4,321 nt of DNA from positions 1 through 4,321 of the IMG/VR virus record IMGVR_UViG_2778261593_000010; one strand, written 5' to 3'. Origin of the DNA: a virus. Its lineage: Duplodnaviria > Heunggongvirae > Uroviricota > Caudoviricetes. The position numbers and the translations under genes are program-made. Positions 1-4,321 of this stretch are shown piece by piece. Within the stretch, counting starts at the first letter, position 1; every line of letters begins with the position of its first letter. The notes below the pieces were generated by a model that was not told where the DNA came from, made no database searches, and saw only the letters and a program-made list of their open reading frames with translations.

Positions 1-402
1 ATCGCCCCGTTCACCATTACACCTGAACTTATCGCCGCGGCGAAGGATGCCAAAAAGCGGGAAATTGAGGCATGGCGTACAGAACAGGAAGCGCAGCCGT
101 TCACGTTCAAATGGAACGGTCGTACCTGGAACGCTGGCCCCGACTCACTGGCTCGCCTTTATCCGGTAGTAATGGCGGCGAAATCCGATACGGCACGGAA
201 CGAGATGACGTGGGGTGACGCTGATAATCAACAGGTGAAACTGTCGATGCCGGAACTGGAAGAACTGGCGGCAGCAATGGCGCAGGCGCAGGTCGATCGC
301 AATGACGAGATTTATCGCCGTCAGCGACAGATGAAGGACGTGCTGGATAGCCTTAATAATCTTGCCGACATCCGCGCTTTTCAGGCTGGAGAGTCAGAAT
401 GA
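1..402 (+). CDS. 3' portion of a phage tail-fibre-assembly / tail-chaperone-like protein (DUF4376-like C-terminal region); 5' end lies outside the window
   Basis: Frame 1 is open from base 1 to the TGA at 400-402 (134 codons with no stop); the ORF track's start at 172 is only the first in-frame ATG. Codon usage is typical of enterobacteria. The W/G/D-containing stretch (FTFKWNGRTWNAG ... MTWGDADNQQVKLSMPELEELAAAMAQ) resembles, from memory, phage tail fibre assembly / DUF4376 proteins. The stop overlaps the next start (ATGA at 399-402). Confidence 0.75.
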   Translation: MAPFTITPELIAAAKDAKKREIEAWRTEQEAQPFTFKWNGRTWNAGPDSLARLYPVVMAAKSDTARNEMTWGDADNQQVKLSMPELEELAAAMAQAQVDRNDEIYRRQRQMKDVLDSLNNLADIRAFQAGESE

Positions 403-1112
403 AATGGGAAAAGGCAATTCTGCGCCCGTCAGCCATGAACATTAAATGCTCTGTGGTTTGCCTGCATCCATGGTCAGAAAATACCGGAAACATCAAACCA
501 TCGGGGCGTTATCTCAGCCCCGAAAATGCTGTATCTGCACTTTTACCCTATCTGAAAGAAAACACAGAAAAGGACATTGTGGCGCTGTTATTTTGCGCTC
601 CTTCTGCTGGCGAGTTTTTATCACTCGCCAGGCAATTTTCAGGCGCATTTCCGTTGCCGGAGGTGGGACGAATGTCCCGCATGATCTCCAGCCAGCTTTC
701 ACTGGCCATCAGCAGAATGCAAATCCCCGCCAGACCGGCAACATCACTTCCGGAACCGATAATGCTGTCGACACAGACCACTCGCAGCATGTCGCTGGCG
801 GCAACCATTGCACAGGCAGCCACTCCTGCCGCCACATCACCGGAAACATTGTCATCATCACTGCATCAGTTCATGAATGCGAGAGATAAAGCTCTACAGG
901 AAATCGCTGATCAGCAGGCCGCACTCCGGCAAAAATTTTGCCCGGTGTGGCGCTTTTGCTACAAGGGAGCCCTCAGCCAGGCCGCAGTGCTGATACAAAA
1001 AAACATCCCACACCCTGAGTGGGTTTTTACAGCTGTGATGCTGTTCGTCGGCGATGATCTCTCATCACTAAGGGAAGCACTACATGACCCAGATGATTGT
1101 CCTTGCGCTTGA
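399..1112 (+). CDS. Hypothetical protein, 237 aa, with an Ala/Ser/Thr/Pro-rich low-complexity centre and a predicted helical Ala/Gln-rich C-terminal part; function unknown (a short tape-measure-like or linker protein is speculation only)
   Basis: A 714-nt ORF; start ATG 399 overlaps the upstream stop (ATGA) with GGAGAG at 388-393 as a ribosome-binding site; its 3' end overlaps the next gene by 29 nt. Against it: several rare codons (AGA, AGG, ATA, CGA), 7 Cys, and a minus-strand ORF (548-835) sharing wobble positions with better-looking codon usage. Confidence 0.55.
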   Translation: MKWEKAILRPSAMNIKCSVVCLHPWSENTGNIKPSGRYLSPENAVSALLPYLKENTEKDIVALLFCAPSAGEFLSLARQFSGAFPLPEVGRMSRMISSQLSLAISRMQIPARPATSLPEPIMLSTQTTRSMSLAATIAQAATPAATSPETLSSSLHQFMNARDKALQEIADQQAALRQKFCPVWRFCYKGALSQAAVLIQKNIPHPEWVFTAVMLFVGDDLSSLREALHDPDDCPCA

Positions 1113-1659
1113 CGGGGAAGCCATTCTGCTGCGCAACATCACCGTCAGCGCCACCATGCAACTACCGGACAAAGATATGTCCGGACAGTCAACCAGCACC
1201 ACGAGCGCCCAGCAGGGAAGCAAGGCTAAAGAGCTGCGCGTGTCGGGGGTTATTGATTTTAACGATGAAGCTATTCTGACCCGTATTTTTCAGCTTGCGG
1301 AGGCAACAGAAAGCAATGGCGCGAAAAAAACATATCGCATTGCTAACGCTACCGCGAAGGCAATCAATATGCGACAGGGGGTATTTTCTGGTGGCATTGA
1401 TGCCACGGAACAACAGGGAAAAATGCACTGGCAGGTCACCTTTACTCTCAGGGAAAAATTAAGCGTGCCAGAGAAAGCGTCTGCACGTAGCGGTTCGCAG
1501 AAAACCATCGCCAGACAGCAGACCCAGAACGGTAGCGAACAGGCACCAGACAAAGGCATGAATACGCAAAGTTCGTTCTGGAAAAAAATCAATGATGCCG
1601 TTGGCTCTGGTCTGGATGCTGTTGGCATCGGGAGCGTGAAAGAGGAAGGGAAAACATGA
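1084..1659 (+). CDS. Hypothetical protein, 191 aa; possibly a gpU-like tail tube-initiator/tail protein (low-confidence recollection), with a Gln/Ser-rich C-terminal tail
   Basis: Clean ORF with typical codon usage; GGGA upstream of ATG 1084; stop overlaps the next start (ATGA at 1656-1659). The segments LRVSGVIDF, ILTRIFQLAEATESNG and HWQVTFTLREKL resemble, from memory, P2 gpU-family proteins; not verified. Confidence 0.8.
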   Translation: MTQMIVLALDGEAILLRNITVSATMQLPDKDMSGQSTSTTSAQQGSKAKELRVSGVIDFNDEAILTRIFQLAEATESNGAKKTYRIANATAKAINMRQGVFSGGIDATEQQGKMHWQVTFTLREKLSVPEKASARSGSQKTIARQQTQNGSEQAPDKGMNTQSSFWKKINDAVGSGLDAVGIGSVKEEGKT

Positions 1660-3353
1660 AATTGATACAACGCTGCATGATTAATGGCGAACGGGTGGAA
1701 ATTGCCGATATAAGCCTTGTTCTTACCCTGAATGCTGCCGGTCGTGGCTTCATTTCTGTTAACAATCTGTCACCCGAACACAGCCTTGCCGGCGCAATGG
1801 TACAAATTGATCTCGGCCGTGACGGTGAAGCATGGCGCTATTTCTCCGGCTACATTGAGCGCGATCAACCTGCTGAAAATGGCTCACGTCGCCTTTTTAT
1901 TCGTGAAGCGGCTGCTGTGCTGGATTTTGATTTCCCTTGCTCCATGCAACACCCGACGTTGCGGAGGGTACTCGATAATCTGGGGCGACAAAGCGGTATC
2001 GTTTTTATCACTCCGGATGCGGATTATGCCAGTATACCAACTCCCTACATCACCCACAGCGGCAGCGGAGCACAACTGCTCAGCCAACTGGGGCGAGCAT
2101 TCAGTATCAGCGATTACGTCTGGCACCCTATGCCGGACGGTTCTGTATTTGTGGGAAGCGCAGCTGATTCACGATTTGCCAGTATTACAATGCCGGATAT
2201 TCCGCAACAGTACACACTCGGGCAAGGCGGCGGAAACAGCATCGACATCATGTTCATGGAAACTGTGCGACCGGGCGTGAATCTTCCCGCCGGGCGTATT
2301 ACCCGCGTAGCCCTCAACAACGAGAAAATGACTCTGACGTGGGAGCGCCTTACCGTCACGGGCAGCCCTGTCTCCAAATCACCATTACGCAGACAGATGG
2401 AAACACAGTTCCCGGAACTGGCCAGCGGCACACTACACACCAGGCTGGCGCGCGTCATTGCACCAACGGAATCCGCCACCCTGGGCGATGTGGCCGACAG
2501 CTTCCGTCCACGCTACGCCGTGGACGTGCAACTGCTCGATGAGGACGGCAACGATAAAAGCGATACGCCTGTTTACCCGGCAGTCCCACTCCCCGTCCCG
2601 ATGGCTGGTAGCGAGGCGGGATGTTTTGCCTACCCGCCGGCAGGCACCATCGTGGAAATATCTAACATTGAAGGGCGCCCGGATAAACCTGTTATCAGGC
2701 AAATCTTACCCGCTGGCCGTAACCTGCCTGATGTAAAGCCCGGCGAACAACTGCAGCAACAGCGCGCAGAAGTGTTTCAGCGCGTCACGACTGACGGAAG
2801 CTGGCACAGAGAAACAGACCAGCAAATCAGGGAGCAGTCAGCCACCCGCACAATTAACAGTGATGCAGAAGAGCGCACCACAACAACCAGAACAACCACA
2901 GTACGGGCAAACGACATAACCAGTGTTCTGGGAACCAGCAAGCTGGCGGCAGGACAAATAGAGCACCTTACTACCGGCCATTACGCGATCGCAGCCAGCG
3001 AGCATATCCAGATGGTAGCGCAGGATTTGCTGACTAAACTCAAAGGGGCAATATCCACAATTGAGCAGGACCTGACTGAAAACGTGGGAGGCCGCAGAAC
3101 ATGCCGGGCGGACGGCGGTCTGAAGTTTACAGCCCCGACAGTATTTATTGGTCGCGGTGGCTCACGGGAAAAATCCGAACTTAATCTGCTGACGTTGTTG
3201 ATTGATATTCTGGATCTGATTCAATTGCTGGCCACGCACACTGCAAACCATACCCACAGCAACACTGGCGCACCAATGAACAGCGGCGAACTTGCCGCAG
3301 ATGCCCTGCAGGCTACGAGCCTGCGCGAAAAATACGGGGACCTTATCGCCTGA
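1656..3353 (+). CDS. Large hypothetical protein, 565 aa; candidate fused phage baseplate hub/spike-like protein (gpD/gp27/VgrG-like N-terminal region, Thr-rich linker, C-terminal HxH tip motif)
   Basis: A 1698-nt ORF with a strong ribosome-binding site (GAGGAAGGG, 1641-1649) and start coupled to the upstream stop. N-terminal segments (LVLTLNAAGRGF, RYFSGYIERD, RRLFIREAAAVLDF, TLRRVLDNLGRQSGI) resemble the Phage_GPD/VgrG N-domain from memory. The C-terminus has HTANHTHSNTGAP, reminiscent of the HxH apex motif of gpV/gp5-type spikes. No Walker A or obvious nuclease motifs. Confidence 0.85.
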   Translation: MKLIQRCMINGERVEIADISLVLTLNAAGRGFISVNNLSPEHSLAGAMVQIDLGRDGEAWRYFSGYIERDQPAENGSRRLFIREAAAVLDFDFPCSMQHPTLRRVLDNLGRQSGIVFITPDADYASIPTPYITHSGSGAQLLSQLGRAFSISDYVWHPMPDGSVFVGSAADSRFASITMPDIPQQYTLGQGGGNSIDIMFMETVRPGVNLPAGRITRVALNNEKMTLTWERLTVTGSPVSKSPLRRQMETQFPELASGTLHTRLARVIAPTESATLGDVADSFRPRYAVDVQLLDEDGNDKSDTPVYPAVPLPVPMAGSEAGCFAYPPAGTIVEISNIEGRPDKPVIRQILPAGRNLPDVKPGEQLQQQRAEVFQRVTTDGSWHRETDQQIREQSATRTINSDAEERTTTTRTTTVRANDITSVLGTSKLAAGQIEHLTTGHYAIAASEHIQMVAQDLLTKLKGAISTIEQDLTENVGGRRTCRADGGLKFTAPTVFIGRGGSREKSELNLLTLLIDILDLIQLLATHTANHTHSNTGAPMNSGELAADALQATSLREKYGDLIA

Positions 3354-3392
3354 TCACCTGGACATAAAAGCCACATAAACGCCCATCACACA

Positions 3393-3417
3393 ACGCACGG
3401 CTTCGGCCGTGCGTTTT
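3393..3417 (+). terminator. Rho-independent terminator of the plus-strand operon
   Basis: Perfect 9-bp stem ACGCACGGC / GCCGTGCGT (3393-3401 and 3406-3414) with a TTCG tetraloop, followed by a T-run (3414-3417); 40 nt downstream of the stop of the 565-aa gene. Confidence 0.8.
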
Positions 3418-3475
3418 CATATCTGCCACCTGATTAATGCGTTCTGCGCGCCATTCTGGCGCTGTATGCGCACAC

Positions 3476-3514
3476 CGCGTAAACGGTGTGACGTAAAGCG
3501 TGAGGTGACGTAAA
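3476..3514. repeat. Short direct repeats: CGTAAA three times (3478, 3492, 3509), two of them as the 10-mer GTGACGTAAA (3488-3497, 3505-3514)
   Basis: Seen directly in the sequence; spacing 14 and 17 bp; lies in the ORF-free region between the two terminators. Candidate protein-binding iterons or a recombination-site remnant. Confidence 0.4.
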
Positions 3515-3895
3515 CCGCGCTACCCCCTCCAACCCGCGGGTTTTGTGTCGAAACACTTTTTCAGTTTTCTGCCATGCAAAAATGACCGCCAGCCCGCGCA
3601 GCAACTGAGGGAAAAGCGAAGATCTGAAATTTCACGCTTTGAAATTTTTTGCAGTTTTCAGAGGGATTTTTACGATCTCATGAATGGCAGGAGAAAGAAA
3701 ACAGGCTGATATTAAAAGAGTTTTCATACTTTACGTGGGACAAGACGCGATCGCGAAAGGATCGCATCAAAAAATCTTCAAACAACGAAGCCAGACGCGG
3801 CGCGGCCTGCGTAAGATTGAGAGTCAAAATTAAACTGAAAAAAGGATCAATACCGCGCCTCGATCGCACATGACGATCTACGCAGCAACAGGACG

Positions 3896-3917
3896 AAAAA
3901 ACCGGCGCGAACGCCGG
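3896..3917 (-). terminator. Rho-independent terminator on the minus strand
   Basis: On the minus strand: CCGGCG-UUCG-CGCCGG (6-bp all-GC stem, UUCG tetraloop; plus coordinates 3902-3917) followed by six U (plus A-run 3896-3901). On the plus strand the A-run precedes the hairpin, so it terminates only leftward transcription. Confidence 0.7.
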
Positions 3918-3960
3918 CGGAAGCATGTATCAAATGCGTGATTGAATAATGTCTGCGGTC
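3896..3960 (-). ncRNA. Candidate ~65-nt small RNA transcribed leftward, divergent from the hok-like gene
   Basis: Bounded by a predicted minus-strand promoter (-35 TTGAGG, -10 TATAAA) and a minus-strand intrinsic terminator (3896-3917). The interval holds no credible ORF (only a 6-codon ATG frame). Length is similar to Sok-type antitoxin RNAs, but it does not overlap the predicted hok leader. Confidence 0.35.
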
Positions 3961-3966
3961 GGGAAT

Positions 3967-3994
3967 TTTATATCAGAAGGCTGACGGGCCTCAA
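3967..3994 (-). promoter_or_regulatory. Putative sigma70-type promoter for the leftward small RNA
   Basis: Minus strand: -35 TTGAGG (plus 3989-3994), 16-bp spacer, -10 TATAAA (plus 3967-3972). By-eye match only. Confidence 0.35.
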
Positions 3995-3998
3995 CGGA

Positions 3999-4028
3999 TT
4001 GATACAAGGGAAAAAACCAGGCTAGAAT
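3999..4028 (+). promoter_or_regulatory. Putative sigma70-type promoter for the hok-like transcript
   Basis: -35 TTGATA (3999-4004), 18-bp spacer, -10 TAGAAT (4023-4028); predicted start near 4036, giving a ~145-nt leader. Its -35 lies 4 bp from the -35 of the divergent minus-strand promoter. Confidence 0.4.
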
Positions 4029-4078
4029 TCGCGCGGGTGCCTTTCGGCTGATGGCTGGAGGGAATACCTGAAGGCCGG

Positions 4079-4153
4079 ATGTGGAAAGGCCCCGGAAAAC
4101 ACTTTTGTTTAACCGAGGCCCTAACCGTCTACCCTAAGCAAGTGATAGGTTAG
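4079..4153 (+). CDS. Possible 24-codon leader ORF in the hok-like mRNA leader (MWKGPGKHFCLTEALTVYPKQVIG)
   Basis: ATG at 4079 preceded by GAAGG (4070-4074); TAG at 4151-4153; same frame as hok-like gene and ends 27 nt before its ATG. It may be fortuitous. Confidence 0.25.
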   Translation: MWKGPGKHFCLTEALTVYPKQVIG

Positions 4154-4180
4154 CGCCTCCCTGAAAAAGGAGCAAGCGCT

Positions 4181-4321
4181 ATGTCGCAAAAATCGCTTAC
4201 GGCCATCACGTTCTGCGTGACGGCAATCCTCATCATCTGGATGCTGCACGGTTCGCTGTGCGAAATACGGATGAGCTTCTGGGGAGCGGAGTTTGCGGCG
4301 TTCTTACAGTGTAAGCAGTAA
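4181..4321 (+). CDS. hok: Hok/Gef-family type I toxin (small membrane-depolarising peptide), 46 aa, closest by memory to HokA-type paralogs
   Basis: Not in the ORF track (below its size cut-off). ATG 4181 has a ribosome-binding site AAGGAG (4167-4172, 8-nt spacing); TAA at 4319-4321. Product MSQKSLTAITFCVTAILIIWMLHGSLCEIRMSFWGAEFAAFLQCKQ has an N-terminal transmembrane helix followed by the family-defining SLCEIR motif and an E-x-AAF C-terminal segment (compare Hok of plasmid R1: ...[23 protein letters not shown]...). Confidence 0.85.
   Translation: MSQKSLTAITFCVTAILIIWMLHGSLCEIRMSFWGAEFAAFLQCKQ

Follow-up and report, generated by a model that had tools for sequence, protein, structure and literature searches.

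A 4,321-nucleotide stretch of viral DNA (Caudoviricetes; positions 1 to 4,321 of IMG/VR record IMGVR_UViG_2778261593_000010; hereafter the window) carries three overlapping genes, for proteins of 237, 191 and 565 aa, next to the end of a tail-fibre-type gene, which raises the question whether this trio belongs to an ordinary phage tail, to a reduced or repurposed tail-like apparatus, or to cargo placed behind the fibres. The initial annotation, made from the letters alone, could name none of the three proteins and proposed a novel tail-like or cargo module. Profile searches name two of the three at once, and the trio very probably represents homologues of orf33, orf34 and orf35, the genes with which the late tail operon closes in a temperate myovirus of the HP1 subgroup (Peduoviridae), here in an Escherichia-type genome, and which encode the central baseplate.

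All three window proteins are homologous over their full length to the orf33-35 products of phages HP1 and HP2 (UniProt P51737, P51738 and P51739), with 24-37% identity to HP2. The BLASTP alignments run end to end for the 237-aa protein and HP2 orf33 (255 aa; 24% identity, E 6e-18), for the 191-aa protein and orf34 (186 aa; E 7e-39), and for the 565-aa protein and orf35 (533 aa; E 2e-130). The 191-aa protein matches PF25759, "Bacteriophage HP1 ORF34 baseplate complex protein", with 182.4 bits against a cutoff of 27 and over positions 2-177 of the 180 in the profile, a family present in 75 of 75 orf34 homologues among the matches listed, and for the 565-aa protein the match is phrog_2258, "baseplate protein", along its entire length (E 2e-230). 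The 237-aa protein is covered by phrog_1677 (E 4.5e-39) and phrog_31292 (E 3.6e-74), both PHROGs of unknown function.

The gene order is conserved together with the sequences. By tblastn, orf35 homologues occur in 75 phage records, each of which, where listed or examined, is Peduoviridae or HP1-like, including HP1, HP2, K139, Kappa, phiO18P, F108, ESSI-2, Yersinia 324 and phi3; the family as a whole returned more than 1,000 protein clusters. The tail module of HP2 ends with orf31 (fibre), orf32 (fibre assembly), orf33, orf34 and orf35, and this order of fibre, fibre-assembly-type gene, orf33-34-35 and module end, with abutting or overlapping junctions, is found in the window. HP1, HP2 and the phages with counterparts share the order, the overlapping junctions and the position behind the fibres, followed by a terminator or the genome end, the counterparts being orf37-39 in K139, gp44-46 in phiO18P and gp33-35 in Yersinia phage vB_YenM_324. 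Hidden Markov models (HMMs) of the three families match consecutive open reading frames (ORFs) in the same order in HP2, Yersinia 324, K139, phiO18P and Pseudomonas phi3, and the order is kept across phages of Haemophilus, Yersinia, Vibrio, Aeromonas, Pseudomonas and Enterobacteriaceae. The closest phage records (ESSI-2-like, Salmonella SI7 and Yersinia 324) reach only 46-49% identity for orf35 and ~30% for orf33; no isolated phage carrying the exact lineage of the window was found in the phage collection, and the lineage is known only from E. coli prophages.

For the 191-aa orf34 homologue, structural matches support a role as tail-tube initiator or baseplate-to-tube adaptor, the part that gpU plays in phage P2. 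Its fold and role fit the tube-initiator class, which agrees with the gpU-like role first proposed for it, and the initiator call derives from the ranking of the hits, the adjacency to the hub gene and the presence of a separate tube gene beside the sheath gene. Searches of the PDB by sequence and by family profile returned no significant relative of orf34. Vibrio phage XM1 gp11 is among the tube-fold matches; XM1 is not HP1-type and was set aside as a solved model for the trio, its use being limited to that of a framework.

The evidence likewise supports the 565-aa orf35 homologue as a baseplate hub (gpD/Mu gp44/gp27-like) fused to a central spike (gpV/gp5-like), an architecture of the VgrG type, and the hub fold and the profile evidence agree with the fusion suggested initially. 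The hub domain was modelled by AlphaFold2 (AF2) with a predicted local distance difference test score (pLDDT) of 80-95, and in fold searches 212-234 of its residues align to the hubs of Mu, MuSo2, A-1(L), phiCD508, pyocin R2, E217, PhiTE and P1. In a profile search, residues 310-347 align to the oligonucleotide/oligosaccharide-binding (OB) region of VgrG1, Pvc8 and VgrS, and sequence and profile searches of the PDB gave weak matches to spike domains only. Near the C-terminus an H-x-H motif is invariant in 40 aligned homologues; HTH or HVH stands ~30 residues from the C-terminus in HP2, Yersinia 324, K139, phiO18P, phi3 and C5a. The end of P2 gpV (...LHTHKHPGDSGG...) carries HTHKH, and the P2 cryo-electron microscopy (cryo-EM) preprint mentions an iron site in the apex of gpV. 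The orf35 motif is a candidate for metal binding at the spike tip; unlike in P2 gpV, it is followed by ~30 residues with a predicted helix.

Hub and spike are not joined in all relatives. In phi3 (locus L008, 3782-5652) and C5a (L009, 3941-5433) the orf35 match falls into two overlapping reading frames, of which RefSeq annotates the C-terminal (spike) part only, so that the orf35 family exists in split and fused forms; hub and spike are separate genes in ACA1 and C5a and one polypeptide in the window and in HP1. A 543-aa protein from a 4-kb assembly (P0020), which shares 93% identity with 62% of the 565-aa protein and in addition contains Pfam PF05125 (P2 major capsid), may be a capsid-orf35 deletion fusion in another decayed prophage, or a misassembly.

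These assignments are in line with published mapping of the subgroup, in which sheath, tube, sheath initiator, gpU and cell-puncturing device were linked to P2 only by HHpred, at ~13% identity (Viruses 2023;15:2061; PMC10612066). Table S1 of that study lists HP1 orf34 as "gpU (uncertain)" and orf35 as gpD (N-terminal) plus gpV (C-terminal), and ACA1 gp46-gp49 were mapped by HHpred to HP1 orf33, orf34, the N-terminal part of orf35 and its C-terminal part, with the orf33, gpD and gpV homologues detected by mass spectrometry (MS) of virions (PMC10612066). The P2 hub consists of three gpD, the tube initiator of six gpU and the spike of three gpV (P2 cryo-EM preprint), the same three central-baseplate roles as those of orf34 and orf35. 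P2 resembles the window in that the initiator gene lies directly 5' of the hub gene and H-T-H stands near the spike's C-terminus; it differs in having U and D behind the tape-measure gene and V as the first gene of another operon, whereas in the window the genes follow the fibres and hub and spike are fused. Identity to gpU, gpD and gpV by HHpred is ~10-15% (PMC10612066), with no sequence-level family membership, and the genes do the work of U, D and V while standing outside those Pfam families. In Mu, tube initiator (gp43, the DNA circularization protein N), hub (gp44) and spike (gp45) are three separate proteins with at most 15% identity, and Mu N, at 446 aa, is much larger than the 191-aa protein. 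The PV94 paper gives MS data for capsid, tape-measure and one baseplate protein only and nothing on the trio, and literature searches for PF25759, vB_YenM_324 and HP1 orf35 by name had no match.

The one-chain order of gp27-like hub, gp5-like OB fold and beta-helix is shared with VgrG of the type VI secretion system (T6SS), with Afp8 and Pvc8, and with hub-spikes of other extracellular contractile injection systems (eCIS). One copy of the gene, in AJ1 (L001, 21656-23353), is in fact named "type VI secretion system Vgr family protein" by the Prokaryotic Genome Annotation Pipeline (PGAP), and the 565-aa protein could by that name be a T6SS spike. Its scores against the NCBIfam models TIGR01646 and TIGR03361 are, however, far below cutoff (18.6 against 121.8 and 15.9 against 186.35 bits), its best structural matches are phage hubs, and all contexts examined are phage tail operons that have no T6SS genes close by. 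As VgrG and the hub-spikes of phages are known to be homologous, a resemblance is expected, and a secretion spike is an exceedingly improbable identity for this protein. A C-terminal region with two or three helices around H-x-H also sets the orf35 family apart from VgrG and eCIS proteins.

The genomes in which the locus occurs point to a baseplate as well. The whole window is found at at least 93% identity in 48 complete E. coli genomes, and in AJ1, RM10740 and SC418 the gene string with the trio closes a complete prophage. Its head genes (portal, large terminase, scaffold, P2-type capsid, small terminase and head completion) are accompanied by gpR/gpS-like, DUF2586 (HP1-type sheath), tube, holin, endolysin and chaperone genes, by a tape-measure gene of ~2.1 kb, and by DUF2590, gpJ and gpI genes upstream of the fibres; two fibre genes with assembly genes are then followed by the trio and by a hok/sok module. 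DUF2590 is placed as HP2 orf28, the position that ACA1 maps to gpW, and the synteny comparison that had been suggested as a check thus finds sheath, tube, gpW-like, gpJ and gpI genes upstream. A contractile tail needs a hub, a spike and a tube initiator, and none of the other genes of these three complete prophages can supply any of them.

This context bears on the view that the trio consists of moron, defence or accessory genes carried as cargo in the variable region after the tail-fibre genes. A site behind the fibres and beside hok/sok does resemble a typical moron site, and the 237-aa protein has no annotated function, but an order kept across phages of six host groups argues against cargo, as do the baseplate folds of two of the three proteins, the absence of a PADLOC defence match for any of them, the presence of an orf33 homologue in the ACA1 virion (PMC10612066) and the lack of another hub, spike or initiator gene in the complete prophages. 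Cargo is scarcely credible on this evidence. The trio belongs to a conventional prophage tail operon whose homologues are annotated, the finding that the initial annotation had itself named as refuting its proposal.

Several results weigh against the assignment of the trio to the central baseplate, or against an intact tail around this copy. The Pfam families that the initial annotation expected of tail proteins did not appear as foreseen: PF06995 (gpU) has no match to the 191-aa protein at E up to 1, PF05954 (gpD) has none to the 565-aa protein, and PF04717 (Phage_base_V) stays below threshold on the latter (15.6 bits against a cutoff of 23.8, E 0.021, residues 310-347), so that the relation to the P2 proteins is at the fold level only. 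Comparisons by hhalign with single P2 gpU, gpD and gpV sequences were negative, single-sequence templates making them underpowered. A tube fold by itself does not tell an initiator from a tube protein, and in ACA1 the orf34 homologue was undetected in virions and its gpU homology was called "uncertain", at 15% identity by HHpred (PMC10612066). The spike part of orf35 is poorly modelled as a monomer, pLDDT being mostly below 60 over the C-terminal 320 residues, and the spike architecture consequently draws on weak profile matches, the motif and the literature. Finally, the closest full-length match to the window (K_EC180, 97.5%) is a prophage without head and most tail genes, and 4.3 kb are too short to show an intact prophage around this copy.

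The K_EC180 prophage (L002, 15600-24300) and those of several swine enterotoxigenic E. coli (ETEC) strains have lost everything from portal to gpI, so that ogr now directly precedes a small ORF and the fibre genes; in this lineage the genes for fibre, DUF4376, orf33-35, hok, Com and methylase are still intact. Two chromosomal sites were seen for the prophage family, pheA-raiA and near flk. Such an arrangement, with fibres, DUF4376, an intact trio, hok and methylase but no portal-through-gpI block, is what could be taken for the miniaturised, degenerate or repurposed tail-like apparatus (tailocin or eCIS-like) that was initially envisaged, with a very short protein in place of the tape measure. 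It is nevertheless a deletion derivative of the complete prophage that carries the same gene string in AJ1, RM10740 and SC418, and a remnant of this type, which lacks sheath, tube and wedge genes, cannot build a contractile device. As orf33 homologues moreover occur in full phages with a normal tape-measure gene of ~2.1 kb upstream, a reduced apparatus is very improbable, and the trio is better described as the conserved closing part of the tail operon in HP1-subgroup Peduoviridae.

A separate matter is whether the copy in the window, with the same gene identities, is an inactive relic in a decayed prophage. Its orf33 and orf34 differ from those of the deleted K_EC180 prophage by 3 and 0 codons, and positions 301-1800 are 98.7-100% identical to K_EC180. 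Other segments are closer to intact prophages: 1801-2100, within the hub domain, is 89% identical to AJ1 and K_EC180 but 98-99% to RM10740 and SC418, and 3901-4321 is 99% identical to AJ1, while 3601-3900 is 99% identical to K_EC180 and RM10740 and 89-91% to AJ1 and SC418. The closest lineage thus changes from segment to segment and the window is a mosaic, a pattern that suggests recombination among sibling prophages. The three ORFs are also intact and have good ribosome-binding sites, which argues against decay, and a relic is a serious possibility that we nonetheless consider the less probable state of this copy.

The 237-aa orf33 homologue is the one member of the trio to which no fold could be assigned. 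The family comprises 140 representatives at 50% identity, nearly all of 230-300 aa, and is restricted to HP1-subgroup phages; its HMM matches directly 5' of the orf34 homologue in HP2, Yersinia 324, K139, phiO18P and phi3, and no orf33 homologue was detected in C5a by the family profile. The protein consists of a conserved N-terminal block, a linker rich in Ala, Ser, Thr and Pro (~residues 95-155) and a conserved C-terminal block. Its earlier description as Ala-rich holds only mildly, the protein as a whole having 12.7% Ala. No relative was found in Pfam, NCBIfam, PADLOC or the PDB, nor a solved relative of the family in a PDB search with a 63-sequence profile, and hhalign showed no relation of the family to those of orf34 and orf35, so that, at the level of detectable similarity, orf33 is no diverged paralogue of tube or hub. 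A 527-aa protein (P0307) with an orf33 domain at 309-523 is the only clear fusion partner seen for the family; its N-terminal 300 residues have no Pfam domain.

The initial annotation had placed the 237-aa protein in the tape-measure position. This cannot be upheld, as the protein is an orf33 homologue and the complete prophages have a tape-measure gene of ~2.1 kb upstream. The candidate role of tape measure was rejected: the protein has no match to a tape-measure family in Pfam, PHROGs or NCBIfam, and the related phages and complete prophages encode their tape measure in another gene, of 1.9-2.2 kb, that lies upstream. The ACA1 homologue gp46 was found by MS in purified virions with 2 spectra and a ratio of spectral count to molecular weight (SC/MW) of 0.09, compared with 0.08 for gpW, 0.05 for gpJ and 0.06 for gpV (PMC10612066). 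As these abundances are similar, a low-copy component of the baseplate or tail tip is the best guess, and orf33 probably encodes a low-copy virion protein specific to the HP1 subgroup. P2 uses the LysM "glue" protein gpX, whereas no LysM protein is evident in the window, which has the subgroup-specific orf33 instead; a LysM domain was not found in the 237-aa protein by Pfam at E up to 1, nor in five diverse members of the orf33 family.

Homology, synteny, the folds of the hub domain and of the tube-initiator core, and a complete prophage setting in relatives are shown; copy numbers, assembly order, metal binding at H-x-H and the part played by orf33 belong to a model. By analogy with P2, a central baseplate could be assembled from these products as follows. 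Three 565-aa chains would form the hub, each contributing two tube-like domains to a pseudo-hexameric platform, and the same chains would continue into an OB fold, a beta-helix and a membrane-piercing spike tipped by H-x-H, one polypeptide thus doing the jobs of P2 gpD and gpV. Six copies of the 191-aa protein would sit on top of the hub as the tube-initiator ring and nucleate polymerisation of the tube protein, their flexible C-terminal extensions probably touching the wedges. The 237-aa protein would be present at low copy number, most likely as an accessory or adaptor of the baseplate core. Overlapping stops and starts may couple translation, such that the three proteins would be made together late in infection.

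The layout of the locus is compatible with such coupling (Table 1). The three ORFs are intact, and their sizes and boundaries as first read are the same in the ORF list and in the PGAP annotation, RefSeq/PGAP calling identical boundaries in four E. coli genomes. The junctions described in the initial annotation are all present (stop and start overlap as ATGA at 399-402 and 1656-1659, and two genes share 29 nt at 1084-1112), and a purine-rich, Shine-Dalgarno-like stretch lies 6-9 nt 5' of each start (GGAGAG, AAGGGAAG and GAGGAAGGG). A terminator-like hairpin at 3392-3415, AACGCACGGC-UUCG-GCCGUGCGUU and then UUCAU, follows orf35, with UUUUCAUAU directly 3' of it, and segment 3354-3430 has a fold energy of -20.6 kcal/mol (z = -3.6 against shuffles). 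The hairpin is GC-rich, but its U-tract is short, only 4 long, and it is absent from the output of a simple terminator scan, hence the term "strong terminator" was somewhat generous. K139 has an annotated terminator, T39, at the equivalent place 3' of orf39. The reading of the genes as one expression unit holds, and the unit is tail-related.

Table 1. Coordinates of features in the 4,321-nt window
Feature	Position	Strand	Basis or remarks
DUF4376 tail-fibre-type gene, 3' end (133 codons), adjoining the trio	1-402	+	Pfam, PHROGs, PGAP
orf33 homologue, 237 aa	399-1112	+	ORF list
orf34 homologue, 191 aa	1084-1659	+	ORF list
orf34 domains			Tube-fold core, residues 1-125; disordered C-terminal extension with one helix
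orf35 homologue, 565 aa	1656-3353	+	ORF list
orf35 hub domain, ~aa 1-245	1656-2390	+	AF2 model, fold matches
orf35 spike part	2442-3170	+	OB-fold, ~aa 263-350; beta-rich/beta-helix, ~aa 365-505
Invariant H-T-H (His532, His534), candidate metal-binding apex motif	3249-3257	+	Near the orf35 C-terminus
Intrinsic-terminator-like hairpin, operon end	3392-3417	+	8-10 bp GC-rich stem, UUCG loop

The gene that precedes the trio matches Pfam DUF4376 (E 5e-17) and phrog_1141, "tail fiber protein" (E 3e-57), and its counterpart is a "DUF4376 domain-containing protein" in PGAP. Over bases 1-326 the window shares 99.1% identity with the tail fibre gene of the Shiga toxin (Stx) phage phiP27, for which the near-identical match is confined to this part of the window and none was found for the other regions of phiP27. 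The same bases are ~89-90% identical to the fibre genes of Rac-SA53 and SerU-LTIIb and only ~81-90% identical to the otherwise closest E. coli prophages. Judged from these sequence identities, the C-terminal part of the DUF4376 protein looks like a horizontally exchanged receptor-binding or chaperone module.

On the other side of the trio, a spacer of ~600 bp (3420-4030) separates the terminator from the hok/sok region and contains no annotated gene in E. coli records. Against the phage collection, positions 3354-4030 remained without a match, distant mode included, and a short tandem-like direct repeat (GTGACGTAAAGCG / GTGACGTAAACCG) lies at 3488-3517. A sigma-70-like site, TTGATA-18-TAGAAT, is found at 3999-4028, and an Rfam sok match covers 4035-4194 of the + strand (E 2e-7; 42.6 bits, which falls short of the gathering score, 59). 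An ORF of the Hok/Gef family at 4181-4321, after the tail operon, is annotated in E. coli, and its counterpart in P88- and Xuanwuvirus-type phages is a "MokW-like host killing protein". By its sequence, positions 4035-4321 are a hok/sok-type toxin-antitoxin module 3' of the tail operon.

The central baseplate genes of an HP1-type prophage are already known, having been mapped in the literature and recently named in Pfam and PGAP, and the result carries little weight as a discovery; it is a correct re-identification whose practical value is in annotation. Most database copies of the trio families are still labelled "hypothetical". The orf34 family appears as "adenine glycosylase" in Yersinia phage vB_YenM_324 (L004, 13459-14004) and as "nucleoid DNA-binding protein" in Pseudomonas phi3 (L008, 3462-4001) and in UniRef cluster P0168. 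These public product names, like the Vgr label in AJ1, are probably wrong, and naming the tube initiator and the fused hub-spike would correct many prophage annotations. The interest that remains lies in the role of orf33 and in the HP1-subgroup baseplate, of which there was no example among the solved structures or papers searched. It is a tentative and rather unlikely proposal that the orf33 family is a previously uncharacterised kind of baseplate-core component, one that might take the place of the LysM "glue" (P2 gpX) or of the "ripcord" element known from other contractile systems; if so, HP1-type baseplates would be kept together or set off in another way than the systems seen so far.

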